Notes under the pieces: model-generated
The model's input: the letters and a program-made list of their open reading frames with translations, nothing else
Database searches by the model: none
Told to the model about the DNA's origin: nothing
Position numbers and translations under genes: made by a program
IMG/VR virus record: IMGVR_UViG_3300024319_000005
Span: 1-64,000 of that record
DNA: 64,000 nucleotides
DNA from: a virus
Reading direction: 5' to 3' (one strand)
Part shown: one piece after another, positions 31,532 through 61,743 of the stretch
How the letters are laid out: each line of letters begins with the position of its first letter
How positions within the stretch are numbered: position 1 is the first letter of the stretch

Positions 31532-31570
31532 GTTTATTTATTAATTTGTTTATAAATTTTTTTATTTTTA

Positions 31571-33325
31571 CTATACTCCACCGTCATCAGTAAAACTCCA
31601 ACCATTAGCTAATAGCGCAGTTCTTGCTGTACCACTTGTTGCTGTAGTATATGTAGATGGAATAGTGTAAATGTTTCTTCCAGTTAGTGAATAAGTAATT
31701 CTTTGTGCATTTAACCTATTTAAAAATCCATCATAGTTTGTTGTTCCTATATTAGTATCAGTAAACATTTGATAATAATCTGTAACTAAACTAAAATTCC
31801 AATTACTTAGATCTGGATTACATTGAGCACCTTTATAAAACATTTGTCTCATAGAAGTCACTTTGCTCGTATCCCAACCGCTTACATCTGGATTAGCTAG
31901 GGAGTTACTATTATTACTATAAAACATATATGCCATTTTAGTTACATTACTAGTATCCCATCCACTTGTATCGGGGTTTGCATCATAAGCATATTGAAAC
32001 ATTGCCTGCATATCAGTAACTAAACTGGTATTCCATCCACTTGTATCTGGATTTGCATCATAGGCACCATAAAACATATATTTCATTGATGTAACTAGAC
32101 TAGTATCCCACCCACTTGTATCTGGAGTTGCAATATAAGCACTACGAAACATATATCTCATTTTTGTTACTTTGCTTGTATCAAACCCACTTACGTCTGG
32201 GTTAGCTGCTCTACAATTAGAAAACATAAACTCCATATTATTAACATTACTTGTATCAAAACCACTAACGTCTGGATTTGCAACGTAACAAGCATCAAAC
32301 ATCCTACTTAAATTAGTAGCAATGCTAGTATCAAAATTACTTACATTTGGTGTAGCTACCCTACAATTACTAAACATACTTTGCATAGTAGTAACGTTAC
32401 TTGTATCAAACCCACTTACATCTGGATTTGCTACATAACAATTTTGAAACATAGAACTTAAATCAGTACAACCACTTGTATCAAAGCCGCTTACATCTGG
32501 AGTTGCTGCTCTAGCACCAAAAAGAAATGAAGAAAGACCATTTCCAGTAATACTACTTGTATCAAACCCACTTACGTCTGGATTTGCAAGAACACATTGA
32601 TAAAACATATATCTCATACTAGTTACTAAACTAGTGTCAAAACTACTTACATCTGGAGTAGCTACTGAGCAATAAAAAAACATACCATACATATTAGTAA
32701 CATTACTAGTATCAAAGTTACTAACATCTGGTGTAGCTAATCTACAAAACCAAAACATACTATCCATTCTTGTAACACTACTAGTATCCCAATTACTTAC
32801 ATCTGGGTTAGCTGCTGAACAATTAGAAAAAATACTACGCATATTAGTAACATTACTAGTGTCTAGTAAACTTACATCTGGATTACCTGTTGAATTAGCA
32901 AAACATAAATACAAATTTGTTGTAGTACTTTCTAAATTTGCAGCAACGGATAGCAAAGAGCTACAATATCTAAAACTTGCAGATGTTGCTCCAGTTATTC
33001 CCCAATCTAAAATCTTAGTTAAGAATTGTTTATTTGCAGTAGATGCACTGCCCCAAGCTAAACTTGTAGCAGTTCCATAATATCTAATAACATAAGTCCC
33101 AGCACTTGCAAACGTATGTGTTGCTTGATCTGGACTTCCAATTACATCTGATGTGCCATCATCAAATACTAGTCTACCACTACTGTCACTTGACCTAATT
33201 GGAAGATAGACAGTTGTATTTGCTGCTGTAGTAGTAAACTCCATAGCAAATGAACCATCTGCCACAAATGAACCACCTACTCCTGCTTGTTGTGGTACGT
33301 GTCTATGTGGGTTAATTATATTCAT
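31571..33325 (-). CDS. DUF285/BspA-type leucine-rich-repeat-like adhesin (receptor-binding candidate)
   Basis: About 15 tandem ~25-aa repeats PDVSxxDTSxVTxMxxMF. Confidence 0.85.
   Translation of the reverse strand: MNIINPHRHVPQQAGVGGSFVADGSFAMEFTTTAANTTVYLPIRSSDSSGRLVFDDGTSDVIGSPDQATHTFASAGTYVIRYYGTATSLAWGSASTANKQFLTKILDWGITGATSASFRYCSSLLSVAANLESTTTNLYLCFANSTGNPDVSLLDTSNVTNMRSIFSNCSAANPDVSNWDTSSVTRMDSMFWFCRLATPDVSNFDTSNVTNMYGMFFYCSVATPDVSSFDTSLVTSMRYMFYQCVLANPDVSGFDTSSITGNGLSSFLFGARAATPDVSGFDTSGCTDLSSMFQNCYVANPDVSGFDTSNVTTMQSMFSNCRVATPNVSNFDTSIATNLSRMFDACYVANPDVSGFDTSNVNNMEFMFSNCRAANPDVSGFDTSKVTKMRYMFRSAYIATPDTSGWDTSLVTSMKYMFYGAYDANPDTSGWNTSLVTDMQAMFQYAYDANPDTSGWDTSNVTKMAYMFYSNNSNSLANPDVSGWDTSKVTSMRQMFYKGAQCNPDLSNWNFSLVTDYYQMFTDTNIGTTNYDGFLNRLNAQRITYSLTGRNIYTIPSTYTTATSGTARTALLANGWSFTDDGGV
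31800..32890 (-). repeat. ~75-bp coding tandem repeat array (DUF285 units)
   Basis: Recurring cttgtatcaaa(a/c)ccactta(c)gtctgg on the + strand. Confidence 0.85.
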
Positions 33326-49211: not shown

Positions 49212-49242
49212 CAAATATACTAACATATGTTGAAACTTCAAA
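49212..49242 (-). promoter_or_regulatory. Bacteroidota sigma70 promoter
   Basis: Minus strand TTTG-N19-TATATTTG, a perfect -33/-7 consensus. Confidence 0.75.
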
Positions 49243-53290: not shown

Positions 53291-55622
53291 GTATTGCGCT
53301 ATTTGTTGATAAAAACTGTAATCTGTTTGATTCTTTTTTTCTTCTGACTTGTGTCATAAAAGATTCTTGTTCTGATAAAAATGTAGGAACTAGTATTAAC
53401 GATGATACTGCATCAAAGTTACCATCTAGTGTAAACTGAGCAATTTGCCGTACTAAAAATATACAAGGTAGTGTTTCTATTAATTTAACTTCTCCGTTAC
53501 CTCGTGTTACGTCAGTAAGTAATAAGTCATTTGTATCATCTACCATTGTCATTTTACCTATAGCTCCTCTAGCACCTACCATATACCCAAACTGGGTTAC
53601 TTTCTTTTCGTAGATACTGTCTCCTTTTGCATGCTGGGGTCTTAATGCTAGTAAATGTAACTTACTCTTTTTCTCAAAGTAAGACCTACAAAATTCCCCT
53701 CTGTTTGCTTCATATACTAACCCTCTAAATGGGTTACCATAGAATGCTAACAACTTTTCTAAATTCTGATAGTATTGTTTCTTACCTCCTTTAGGTTTAC
53801 CTATGTAAGAACAAACTAGTTGGTTACCATCATGTGTAACACTGTACTTAGGATTTAAAAATCCATAGGTTACTCCTAACGATGCTCCGTCTTCTTGGTT
53901 ATCTGATACATAAGGATCATGTACAAAAAAATACATATCGTTAGGTACTGAACCTCTAACTTCTTGCGGTGGCTGGTACATCATTACTTCACCATCCATT
54001 CTTTCCATGTCTTTTCTAATTGGAAAATCATAAAAAGGATTAGGATTATGCACTATATCATAAGTTACTCCGTTAGGTTTAGCACTATCCCACCTTAACT
54101 CTATAGCTGTACCAATAGTTTGATAGAGCTTTCTGTCCATTAATTGTCTCTCCCTTTCTACTGCTTCTTCATATGGTAGTAAATACTGTGCATCTGTAAC
54201 CCACATGTGTGATGGTATATCAGGGTAGTTCATACAGTGCATTCTAAGTGTTTTGGGATTTGCAGACTGTGCTGCTTCCATATACTCACTTAACCAATGT
54301 TCTCGTGCTGCTTTTACATCTGTATTACCATTTCTATCCTTAAACTGTCTATAAGTCATGTATGCAGGAATAAAAAACCCTATATTACCAGTGTTCTCCC
54401 AAACGTCTTCATATTCTACTATATTAAATTGTGCAGGGTTAGTAAACATTTCTTTTGACTGCAATACTAACTCTACGTTTCCTGATGTACCTAGTAGATA
54501 CTGTATCCCAAACTGTACACCATTTCTTGTTACTGTTGCTTTATTAGAGTTCCATACTTCTATAACGTTATCACTTAATCCAACCTCCTCAAAGGTACTT
54601 ACGTTATAACGACCTCCTGCTGCTGCTTCTGCTCCGTCTTTCTTGTTAGATGAATAAGATACATGAAACATTCTTGTACCTGTACCAAAACCACCTACCC
54701 AACTACCATTAATCTTTTGCTCATATAAGTGTGCCCAACCACCAACTTGTTTGTTACCTGGCTTGATAGGACCATTCATATCTCTGTAGAATGGGTTAGG
54801 AGTCCAATCCGAACCACCTTGTTGCCCCCATACTCCTAGCCTTGGGTTAGTTGCAAACTCATTCATTGCATCTACAAGCTTCTGTATAAGTTCACCAGAT
54901 TTATCTGTCTGCCCAGATCCTATAGCTATTTCTATTTTTTGTACAACTTCTTTGTCATACTTTACTGCTCCATCAAAGCATATCTGATAAAGGTTAACTG
55001 CTATTGCAGAAAAAAAACTTTTACCTGAACCCCTTGATCCAAATACAAACTGGTTACTAGCTGGGTTTTGAAACAAAGGTATTCCTAACGGTTCGTCAGT
55101 TACTCTTCTAAGGTTTTGTCTTGGGGGTAAGTATTTCTTTAACTTTCCTTTTTTGTTTATTACATTTAGTAATGCTTCTTTTAAGTCTGGATCCATGTCT
55201 TCAAACTCTGCAGTGTTAGGAACTCCTTTTTCTACATAATCAAAATACAAACTATCAGAAGTATACTCATCATCATTCTTATATCCTGAAAACCCCCTTG
55301 CTTCCCAATGATGAAAAGCTTGTTCCCACTCTAAGTCTTGTATCTTTGGTGCAGTCTTCTTAGTTACTTTAGTAAACTTGTTAGTATCTACAATAATACC
55401 AAATTTACCATAAAAGTACAAACAACCTGGCATATGCATCCATTTACCAAACTGCTGTGTCCATTTACCTTCTATACAGTATTTTTTTTCTTGTTGCCAA
55501 TATTCTATGTATCTTGGGTCACTAGGGTGAAATATTTTTATTTCATCTAAGTTAAATGCTTTTATATTATCTATTTTTACCCAATTAGGCTGACCACAAG
55601 TCCAATGTTTATATTCTGTCAT
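53241..55622 (-). CDS. terL: Terminase large subunit
   Basis: Walker A GSRGSGKS, Walker B TFEEVG, GTSG, HDPY, YEANRG and GNFDAVS. Confidence 0.92.
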   Translation of the reverse strand: MTEYKHWTCGQPNWVKIDNIKAFNLDEIKIFHPSDPRYIEYWQQEKKYCIEGKWTQQFGKWMHMPGCLYFYGKFGIIVDTNKFTKVTKKTAPKIQDLEWEQAFHHWEARGFSGYKNDDEYTSDSLYFDYVEKGVPNTAEFEDMDPDLKEALLNVINKKGKLKKYLPPRQNLRRVTDEPLGIPLFQNPASNQFVFGSRGSGKSFFSAIAVNLYQICFDGAVKYDKEVVQKIEIAIGSGQTDKSGELIQKLVDAMNEFATNPRLGVWGQQGGSDWTPNPFYRDMNGPIKPGNKQVGGWAHLYEQKINGSWVGGFGTGTRMFHVSYSSNKKDGAEAAAGGRYNVSTFEEVGLSDNVIEVWNSNKATVTRNGVQFGIQYLLGTSGNVELVLQSKEMFTNPAQFNIVEYEDVWENTGNIGFFIPAYMTYRQFKDRNGNTDVKAAREHWLSEYMEAAQSANPKTLRMHCMNYPDIPSHMWVTDAQYLLPYEEAVERERQLMDRKLYQTIGTAIELRWDSAKPNGVTYDIVHNPNPFYDFPIRKDMERMDGEVMMYQPPQEVRGSVPNDMYFFVHDPYVSDNQEDGASLGVTYGFLNPKYSVTHDGNQLVCSYIGKPKGGKKQYYQNLEKLLAFYGNPFRGLVYEANRGEFCRSYFEKKSKLHLLALRPQHAKGDSIYEKKVTQFGYMVGARGAIGKMTMVDDTNDLLLTDVTRGNGEVKLIETLPCIFLVRQIAQFTLDGNFDAVSSLILVPTFLSEQESFMTQVRRKKESNRLQFLSTNSAIHDQNHRHKKRSISRLV

Positions 55623-55637
55623 ACGCTATTCTAGTTT

Positions 55638-55666
55638 AAAAAGAAGAGAGAGCTTCGGGCTCCCTC
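55638..55666 (-). terminator. Terminator-like hairpin immediately upstream of terL
   Basis: Minus strand gagggagc-ccgaa-gctctctc-ttcttttt. Confidence 0.6.
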
Positions 55667-55738
55667 CCCAATTCACCTATTGGATTGTCTTTATTTACAA
55701 GGGTACAATCTTAAACCCTCTCTGCACAAAGTGTAATC

Positions 55739-58375: not shown

Positions 58376-58583
58376 AATTTTCTAATCTTGTATCTCCGTT
58401 CTCTACTATATTTATTACCATACCATGGTAAAATTGTATATCCTGAAGAAAGTTTAAACCTAACTCTGTTTTTAAAGCTAAATAGTCATAATGATCCATA
58501 ACTAATATTGTAGGTATTGCTTGATGGTCTAATTGATACTCTCTATATAAGTCATCAATTTCATCTCTTATACTTGTATTCAT
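58332..58583 (-). CDS. Hypothetical protein
   Basis: 83 aa coupled ORF. Confidence 0.6.
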   Translation of the reverse strand: MNTSIRDEIDDLYREYQLDHQAIPTILVMDHYDYLALKTELGLNFLQDIQFYHGMVINIVENGDTRLENYETYQPTDNYYFGD

Positions 58584-58954
58584 TGTTTAATCTTTATTGG
58601 TAATGTTAATTTAATTTCTTTTTTTTGCGCTATTAAATGTACTAAAGGAGAAAATATTCTAGATAAAGTACCATCTTCACCTATGATTTGCTTTTTAATA
58701 AGTTGCTTTCTAACATTAGCTATATGCTGCTTACTCATATACATTTCTTTACTTATCTCATCTAAAACACCTACTCCCTTACATTTAAACTCCGTACCTT
58801 TAGACATTAAATATGCTGTCATGTCAAGTTGCTTGTCTGTTAGTATGTTTTGCGTTTCATTTAAAATAAGTAAGTAATACCTGTAAAATTGTAGCTCAGT
58901 AGTTTCTTTACTAGCTGTACTACTAAGCGTTGGTTGTAATAAGTTTAATTCCAT
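58580..58954 (-). CDS. Winged-HTH DNA-binding protein
   Basis: LTDKQ...EISKEMYMSKQHIANVRKQLIKKQII. Confidence 0.6.
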   Translation of the reverse strand: MELNLLQPTLSSTASKETTELQFYRYYLLILNETQNILTDKQLDMTAYLMSKGTEFKCKGVGVLDEISKEMYMSKQHIANVRKQLIKKQIIGEDGTLSRIFSPLVHLIAQKKEIKLTLPIKIKQ

Positions 58955-58968
58955 AATCTTTTGTTTTG

Positions 58969-59290
58969 TTAGTTCCTAGGTATACCTATCCCCCTGGAAA
59001 TTTTGTCTTTCTTGAGAGATACTCTCGTAACTCCGTTATTAACCTGTAACTTCTACTCACTGTACGTCACCACTTACGTGGTTACACCCTTGAAGGTACG
59101 TCTATATCAACCCTTAGTATTATTCCTTCCTAAGTTTTATATACAGGCAATTTTTGTTATTATCGGGGACATTTCAACCATTATGTTTCTCTGTTATCTC
59201 AAGAGCATAGTCTATAACCCAACGTCTGAACTTGTGCTTTCTATAAGGATAGATGCTATTAACCAAGTTGTAATTAGTAGTTGAACTAAT
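58969..59290 (-). ncRNA. Putative large structured RNA / 5' leader of the late operon
   Basis: Starts just after a TATATTTG promoter. Has nested long-range complementarities, a GNRA-capped hairpin and no minus-strand ORF. Confidence 0.55.
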
Positions 59291-59299
59291 ATAACAATG

Positions 59300-59335
59300 C
59301 AAATATAAAACGAATATCTGGATTATCCTAATTTT
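59300..59335 (-). promoter_or_regulatory. Bacteroidota sigma70 promoter for the late block
   Basis: Minus strand -7 box TATATTTG at 59307-59300; degenerate -33. Confidence 0.65.
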
Positions 59336-59638
59336 TTAGCACTTATTTTTAAAAAACTTTTAATCGAAGGAGAGTACTTATAAATAAGGGGTTGGGTTCA
59401 TTTGAGGGTAGTGCATTAGAGCTTAAATATAAATTACATTATTTAAAAAATGGAAATATGGCGTAAAAAGTTGCCTAAAATAAAAAATTTTTTTTTTTAA
59501 AAAAATGGATTTGCGTATAGATAACCTCCGTCGATGTATACAAACAATTACCCCAAACTAATTATTGACAGAATTGTACCCCCAGGGTACGATTCATAAT
59601 TTTTATCGAAAGCTTTCTGCTTTCAAAAATTTCGTACT

Positions 59639-59962
59639 ATGACTTTTAATGATTTGTTAGACACTCTTAACGTTAACTCTCTTTCTTTAACAATGCAGAA
59701 AGATTTAGACGGTATTGAGACTGGGTATGCTACTCAGTGGGATGCTTCTACTCGTACGAGAGTAGTTATGTCTCCTGAAGCCCTTGCAGGTGCTTCAGAC
59801 CCTTCTGTTAACAACTTCGTTGTTATTCCTTCTTCATTAGTTTCTAAGGACAAGACTGTCCTTAACAAAGAGACTGGTGCTGAAGAAACTATTAAGGGAC
59901 AACCTTATGTGAATAACTTCGTTATTCTCGGTGAGCCAACTATTACGTTTGGCAGACACTAG
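59639..59962 (+). CDS. First early-strand hypothetical protein
   Basis: 107 aa followed by a hairpin. Confidence 0.75.
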   Translation: MTFNDLLDTLNVNSLSLTMQKDLDGIETGYATQWDASTRTRVVMSPEALAGASDPSVNNFVVIPSSLVSKDKTVLNKETGAEETIKGQPYVNNFVILGEPTITFGRH

Positions 59963-61242: not shown

Positions 61243-61743
61243 ATGAAATACTTTATAACAATACTTACATTATTATCTATTACTAATTTCACTTATTCTC
61301 AAGACTATAGTTATGTAGATAAACTATCTAACACTAACTATACTGAGTGGAATGGTCAAGTAGGACATACTAGTATAGAAAAACCTGTACGAGCTGTAAT
61401 AGAATACCAAGGCAATTACAATTTTATATTTAACTTAGTATTAAGTTTAGAAACTAAAGACAAAGGGTTTTTTACTTTACCTTTTAAAGCTACACATAGC
61501 ACTGCTTTTGATGGCGAAAGTGGAACAGTTATCCTTAAATTAAAGGATTTTGGTAGTCCAGCTTTGTTTATAAAAATACAAATACCAAACAAGCATGGCT
61601 TTCAATGTATAGTACATTACTTATACATTAAATCTTTTATAAATGATGTACCTCTTAGAATAGTAATAAAAGATCAAAAGATTATAGACATAATAGATAC
61701 TCTTACTTCTTCAATAAATAAACAAGAGTATTATGGTATATAA
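61243..61743 (+). CDS. Secreted hypothetical protein
   Basis: Bacteroidota-type signal peptide MKYFITILTLLSITNFTYSQ. Confidence 0.7.
   Translation: MKYFITILTLLSITNFTYSQDYSYVDKLSNTNYTEWNGQVGHTSIEKPVRAVIEYQGNYNFIFNLVLSLETKDKGFFTLPFKATHSTAFDGESGTVILKLKDFGSPALFIKIQIPNKHGFQCIVHYLYIKSFINDVPLRIVIKDQKIIDIIDTLTSSINKQEYYGI

Follow-up and report, generated by a model that had tools for sequence, protein, structure and literature searches.

The put RNA of HK022, known from enterobacterial phages, is an element of about 70 nt with two well-defined stem-loops, which lies close to the promoter, where a long phage operon read by the host RNA polymerase begins, and carries the polymerase through downstream terminators. 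In lambda, the nut site, about 30 nt long and clearly structured, stands in the order pL-nutL-N-tL1, followed by later genes. Long 5′ leaders are also found in the capsule operons of Bacteroides, where they are needed for full-length transcription and are acted on by the UpxY (NusG-like) antiterminators. GOLLD, ROOL, HEARO, OLE, raiA and the riboswitches of Rfam 15 fall into a size range comparable to that of the leader described here, and some of them occur in phages; strong covariation and stability are typical of these large RNAs.

In crAss-like phages, the timing of middle and late gene expression is poorly understood. In Cellulophaga phage phi14:2, the virion polymerase transcribes the rightward early genes and the host RNA polymerase transcribes the leftward middle and late genes, and abundant long non-coding RNAs are produced in the rightward early region, at the g004-g006 junctions (bioRxiv 10.1101/2020.03.07.982082); with respect to middle and late timing, this work shows only transcription by the host polymerase.

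The DNA analyzed here, referred to as the window, comprises bases 1-64000 of a 99,222-bp IMG/VR virus record. Its source is an uncultured marine crAss-like phage: the large terminase matches a crAss-type PHROG, and the nearest named relative is phi14:2, with a TerL that is 28.7% identical. All large genes are carried by the minus strand, from 58954 down to base 2, and small rightward genes begin at 59639. The leader considered below sits between the first leftward gene and the divergence of the two arms. The 124-aa product of this first gene has four database relatives, gave no match in Pfam or PHROG and nothing meaningful in a PDB profile search; its AlphaFold model is too poor for a fold search (pLDDT 47.7), and hence only a helix-helix-hairpin at residues 63-97 can be read from it. 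Just upstream of the first rightward gene, an 11-bp G+C-rich hairpin is followed by a T-rich tail (59571-59605, plus strand), which could be a terminator or an N4-style hairpin early promoter for the virion polymerase.

The leader was compared in five sequences of two lineages, namely, the window, its close relatives L012, L013 and L014, whose first-gene proteins are 91-95% identical to that of the window, and the divergent phage G001 (82% identity in TerL, 70% in the first gene). Contigs L012-L015 were recovered from JGI metagenomes. IMG/VR was queried with the first-gene protein, with alignments of the first gene and TerL, and with four exact DNA words from the conserved core, and these scans yielded only G001 and two chance matches inside coding regions (L017 and L024); two further lineages (P0003 and P0004, 69% identity) are known as proteins only. 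No leader homologue was found in GTDB genomes, and blastn against GenBank phages gave no match to the leader, nor any similarity to phi14:2 and its non-coding RNAs. When the leader was compared with the rest of the phage genome for similarity or complementarity, the best match was 15 nt, within the range of shuffled sequences. The claim of the earlier note that the stretch belongs to no known RNA family was borne out by cmscan: the whole window had no match at gathering score among the 4227 models of Rfam 15, the region 58500-59700 at E up to 10 gave two chance matches only, both outside the leader, and the relatives L010, L013 and L014 at E up to 1 gave nothing relevant. By these searches, the leader is a new sequence family with a very narrow known distribution. 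Between 57627 and 60040, blocks of 100% identity between L013 and the window alternate with blocks of 88-93%, a mosaic that suggests frequent recombination among close relatives.

Whole-genome blastn of the window phage against G001 aligned 38.9 kb with a mean identity of 74.6%. The top-ranked 200-nt window of this alignment is 59101-59300, 93.0% identical, and the runners-up belong to the capsid region (87-91.5%). Variable sites among the four close relatives (window included) and differences between the window and G001 are distributed over the region as follows.

59420-59308: upstream of the -7 box; close relatives 20.4%, G001 40.2%
59307-59300, minus strand: TATATTTG, putative Bacteroidota-type -7 promoter box; close relatives 0/8, G001 1/8
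59299-59093, minus strand: ultra-conserved 207-nt core at the 5′ end of the leader; close relatives 1/207 (0.5%), G001 7.2%
59092-58955, minus strand: faster-evolving 3′ part of the leader, 138 nt, containing small hairpins and, ahead of the ATG, a run rich in A; close relatives 8.0%, G001 24.6%
58954-58580, minus strand: first gene of the leftward array, an open reading frame of 124 aa for a possible winged helix-turn-helix protein; close relatives 14.4%, G001 28.8%

Purifying selection in the core is stronger than in the flanking coding sequence, a general mark of functional non-coding elements, and judged from these alignments the leader is under strong purifying selection. Variability drops sharply at the -7 box, so that constraint sets in at the putative promoter, the pattern expected of a transcript, and weakens beyond about 207 nt, a profile that suits a transcribed element with its important portion near the promoter. 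The divergence of the 3′ 138 nt almost equals that of the flanks; thus, of the element of about 320 nt that had been proposed, the 5′ part of about 207 nt is constrained and the remainder evolves fast. The proposed enrichment in G over the flanks applies to the 3′ part (G 0.25, C 0.145) and not to the conserved core (G 0.18, C 0.15). On the other side of the promoter, no nucleotide homology to G001 was detectable from 59357 to the end of the window and on to 65535 of the record, that is, over the first ~6 kb of the rightward arm, which makes the conserved leader the last alignable block before a hypervariable region. As had been claimed, the sense strand carries no coding frame: whether read with table 11, TAG=Q or TGA=W, no frame is longer than 53 codons, and in the longest one all seven G001 substitutions are non-synonymous. 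The sense-strand stops are a mixture of TAA, TAG and TGA, and recoding of TAG as Q or of TGA as W opens no sense frame.

The -7 box is present where the earlier note placed it. In G001 it reads TATATTTA, ending in A; the canonical -33 TTTG is absent in the window, and G001 has TTG 21 nt upstream of the box. From the position of the box, transcription would start about 4-10 nt downstream of it. Further along the leftward arm, the feature that bears on the leader is a predicted terminator.

55638..55669, minus strand: strong intrinsic terminator, 11-bp stem with 6 G-C pairs (55669-55643), then TTTTT

This terminator ends 14 nt before the terL ATG at 55622, which leaves no room for a promoter between them, and G001 keeps a terminator hairpin before terL with a changed sequence. 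The only full match to a Bacteroidota promoter found in leftward-strand non-coding sequence is a textbook one at 49212-49242 (minus strand; TTTG, 19 nt, TATATTTG), 21 nt upstream of the 343-aa gene 49190-48159. With a terminator abutting terL and the only canonical promoter further down, terL seems to need read-through from upstream starts, the nearest candidate being the box at 59307-59300, although terL may have a promoter that was not recognized. In phi14:2, the first leftward gene, g110, lacks a long leader, and terL is preceded by neither a gap nor a terminator.

The four long-range complementarities quoted in the earlier note do pair exactly (7 bp; 9 bp including 3 G-U; 8 bp; 6 bp), with the outer helix closing 14 nt ahead of the ATG at 58954. 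Across the five sequences, 97.5% of the cells in these helices still pair. Thermodynamically, the leader is unremarkable: the minimum free energy of the sense strand is -69.6 kcal/mol, compared with -68.8 +/- 4.7 for dinucleotide shuffles (z = -0.16), the antisense strand has z = -1.44, and subdomains of the leader have z between 0 and -1.8. The proposed fold, when enforced, reaches -64.7 kcal/mol, worse than a typical shuffle, and enforcing it costs 5-27 kcal/mol. Helices 2 and 3 have mean pairing probabilities of 0.01-0.04. Helix 4 (CCUGUA/UACAGG) is predicted with a probability of 0.74-0.94 in L012 and G001, and helix 1 with 0.94 in the window lineage and 0.008 in G001. Among the five sequences, no pair of the four helices has changed on both sides, and three of the four pairs touched by a change in G001 are broken. 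In the whole leader, 11 helices carry a compensatory change versus 9.7 +/- 3.3 after column shuffling, and G001 substitutions break 14 pairs of the window's minimum free energy fold versus 15.8 with random placement (P = 0.30); in the core only, 2 pairs are broken versus 4.5 expected (P = 0.08). As only two lineages are available and power is low, covariation is not significant overall. The quoted pairings do not exceed what chance produces in an AT-rich 350-mer; nested helices are easily drawn by hand in AT-rich DNA and need controls.

The local stems reported earlier (AACTTG/CAAGTT, GTTGGG/CCCGAT and ACCAC-GTAA-GTGGT) are present in the window and are listed here with one further hairpin.

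59229..59269, minus strand: stem AACUUG/CAAGUU around the hairpin UCUAU-CCUU-AUAGA; compensatory A-U to U-A in G001; stability z -0.4 to -0.9
59162..59223, minus strand: local domain GUUGGG...CCCGAU; z = 0
59066..59085, minus strand: hairpin GUAACCAC-GUAA-GUGGUGAC; in L012, A-U to G-U and loop AUAA
59014..59026, minus strand: hairpin GAGAG-UAU-CUCUC

In the domain 59223-59162, five of the eight G001 substitutions fall in predicted pairs and all five keep pairing, with one A-U to G-C double change. Two 6-bp helices of the core carry compensatory changes (AACUUG/CAAGUU to AUCUUG/CAAGAU, and GACUAU/AUGGUU to GGCUAU/AUGGCU), with P about 0.04, calculated post hoc. The two 3′ hairpins absorb C-to-U and A-to-G changes as G-U pairs: at 59014..59026, two independent C-to-U changes, one in L012 and one in L013/L014, give G-U pairs, while in G001 one pair has gone from G-C to U-A by a double change and another has become an A.C mismatch. 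The GNRA hairpin at 59066..59085 exists in the window as described, but its loop is not kept, since L012 has ATAA and G001 has a different sequence that, by inspection of the alignment, can still form a hairpin of ~6 bp. Consensus-fold z-scores favor the sense strand in the 3′ half (-2.4 versus -1.1 for the antisense strand) and in the core (-1.8 versus -0.6), these values being derived from mononucleotide column shuffles, which flatter the score. Altogether, some of the small hairpins are plausible, and the evidence for structure is weak and local.

These observations suggest that the stretch is probably a functional transcribed leader. It would form a ~345-nt 5′ untranslated region of the leftward (middle and late) transcription unit, and its functional part would be the promoter-proximal ~207 nt (59299-59093), constrained by primary sequence and not by a large closed fold. 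For its mode of action, we tentatively favor antitermination, with some hesitation: the nascent leader RNA might act in cis on the elongating host RNA polymerase, either alone, as HK022 put does, or with Nus-type factors of the host, or else with the product of the downstream small gene, as in the lambda nut/N system. The modified polymerase would then pass the conserved intrinsic terminator 14 nt ahead of the promoterless terL, and read-through would switch on the packaging and structural genes. The start, the action at the RNA level and antitermination are all inferred. A role as a late-gene switch or antiterminator had been raised in the earlier note among other options and stays the favored one, held at the same tentative strength. 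It draws on the rank of 59101-59300 above the capsid genes in the genome alignment; on the constraint that begins at the putative promoter of a sense strand that is non-coding under three codes; on local helices containing G-U pairs that tolerate the G001 changes, two of them with compensatory changes; and on the preference of the consensus fold for the sense strand. It also draws on the terminator before terL, kept in G001 with a changed sequence; on phi14:2, which lacks both the long leader and the terL terminator and in which the host polymerase transcribes the leftward middle and late genes; and on an invariant boxA-like motif. Against it stand the non-significant covariation and ordinary folding stability, the much smaller size and clear structure of the known antitermination RNAs, the imperfect boxA match and a promoter without a canonical -33 element whose -7 box ends in A in G001. 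A bolder version, in which the ~207-nt core represents a new class of cis-acting leader RNA that works mainly through its primary sequence, by reprogramming the Bacteroidota polymerase or by recruiting Nus-type factors for processive read-through, seems rather unlikely; if true, it would be the first RNA-based late-gene switch described for Crassvirales.

The boxA-like motif is located in the core.

59199..59207, minus strand: UGCUCUUGA, boxA-like motif, a lead only; invariant in all five sequences

The boxA consensus is UGCUCUUUAACA in E. coli and AUGAUCUUUGAAA in B. subtilis (PMC13753749; consensus sequences are also quoted in PMC5725501). The invariant UGCUCUU of the leader is identical to positions 1-7 of the E. 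coli consensus, and GCUCUUGAGAU matches 7 of the 10 specified positions of GYUCUUUAANA, the gamma-proteobacterial consensus. The motif is thus off at 3 of 10 positions, it occurs at chance frequency in the window overall, and no conserved boxB-like hairpin is apparent; the resemblance of UGCUCUUGA to boxA, imperfect and noticed post hoc, is treated as a lead only.

Compared with the described systems, the locus shares with HK022 put the promoter-proximal position in front of a long phage operon that the host polymerase transcribes and, in the proposed reading, the role of carrying the polymerase through downstream terminators, but its constrained part is ~207 nt long without a demonstrable fold, and a put architecture does not follow from two small local stems that each carry a single compensatory change. 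With lambda it shares the order of promoter, conserved leader element, first small gene, terminator and later genes; in contrast to lambda, the first gene has no recognized family and the length of the conserved block far exceeds that of a nut site. The likely host phylum and the length of the leader recall the UpxY-dependent operons, whose leaders have no known sequence relation to this one, and, unlike in those systems, no NusG/KOW-like gene was found among nine nearby proteins scanned with Pfam and PHROG. The non-coding transcripts of phi14:2 come from the closest cultured relative but belong to the rightward early region, whereas the present leader heads the leftward arm. The covariation and stability typical of GOLLD, ROOL, HEARO, OLE and raiA are absent here.

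Several other explanations of the conserved block have to be weighed against antitermination. Coding could account for it if the selected feature were a 14-codon sense sORF inside the core (MVEMSPIITKIACI, 59137-59181, minus strand) or a long antisense frame, which was judged not to be a gene.

58973..59284, plus strand: antisense open frame, 103 codons, no ATG

In each of the five sequences, no stop interrupts the antisense frame within the core, and the sORF is kept in G001 (MAKMSPIITKIACI, with two amino-acid changes and one synonymous change). On the other hand, about 8 of the 13 core substitutions are non-synonymous in the antisense frame, with synonymous sites equally frozen, frameshifts or stops break its 5′ half in G001, and it had no match in Pfam, PHROGs or a set of 5.8 billion proteins, while the sORF spans only 45 of the 207 conserved nt. 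By this reading of the substitutions, coding does not explain the conservation of the leader, and we regard it as extremely improbable that either frame is the selected feature. That the block has no special function and was conserved through a recent recombination or sweep among these phages is improbable, too. The mosaic of 100% and 88% blocks in L013 speaks for such an event, but the block is extreme in three independent comparisons, namely, L012 (100/99% versus 83-98%), G001 (93% versus 74.6%) and the near-invariance within the group of four close relatives, and the block has its boundary at the promoter box. The ornate RNA of ~320 nt closed by four nested helices, the original proposal, is not supported and has become a slim prospect. 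Its helices do exist in the window, still pair in nearly all cells, include one with high pairing probability in L012 and G001, and match no known family; but a check of the homologues showed no double-sided change in any of them, breakage in G001, negligible probabilities for helices 2 and 3 (<0.05) and ordinary stability, and the 3′ strands of the helices fall within the rapidly changing segment, which does not fit a closed 320-nt object.

Two further possibilities deserve more weight, though both are doubtful. The leader may be riboswitch-like, with a 5′ sensor that binds a metabolite, a protein or a tRNA and a variable 3′ platform that controls the first gene or genes by acting on translation or stability. 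The succession of a conserved 5′ part and a variable 3′ part is usual for an aptamer with its platform, changes are tolerated in the 3′ hairpins, and in the window lineage the 5′ end of the leader has the A-rich region before the ATG as its best partner (-10.4 kcal/mol, probability 0.94). This pairing is lost in G001 (probability 0.008), however, no riboswitch family matched even at E = 10, the core lacks a stable or covarying fold, and no terminator-like hairpin was found inside the leader. Selection might equally act on the DNA at the divergence of the arms, on a replication origin (possibly primed by a transcript R-loop, in the manner of T4 ori or ColE1 RNA II), on a packaging site, or on an array of sites recognized by a DNA-binding protein of the phage, for example the product of the adjacent gene; this, too, we consider unlikely. 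Conservation of primary sequence without demonstrable structure would suit such an element, as would the location at the strand switch beside a 24%-GC stretch with poly-A/T runs (59330-59520), the turn of the cumulative GC skew 2 kb away, at 61343, the five GGTT-containing words in the leader versus about 1.2 expected (our own count), and the short terminal repeats or pac sites of crAss-like phages (PMC8042965). Yet a transcript accounts better than a DNA site for invariance that starts sharply at the -7 box, G001 has lost two of the five GGTT words, only on the sense strand are the tolerated changes compatible with G-U pairing, the block is internal in contigs of 99, 79 and 69 kb with no assembly break, and the skew signal is confounded by gene orientation.

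With antitermination as the preferred reading, the locus presents a non-coding element that outranks the capsid genes in conservation and is flanked by the putative first leftward promoter on one side and, further down, by a terL guarded by a terminator, which makes it a concrete, testable candidate for the middle/late switch. The phages concerned form a small clade without cultured members, and the mechanism is deduced from context only; if it holds, the leader would be a new variation on phage leader-RNA control.

The comparison with G001 revealed some further differences and similarities between the two phages. In G001, a tRNA-Lys (anticodon UUU; L002:5904-5976) is inserted between the conserved terminator and terL, whereas ARAGORN found no tRNA at all in the window. 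The G001 terL (L002:6001-9396) encodes 1131 aa, compared with 793 aa in the window; the ~340 extra residues have Hint-like ends and a LAGLIDADG-type motif, which identifies them as an intein with a homing endonuclease, which the TerL of the window phage lacks. Finally, dozens of overlapping blastn alignments between 31538-33260 of the window and 75.4-78.8 kb of G001 indicate a highly repetitive coding region common to both phages, the 584-aa gene at 31571-33325.
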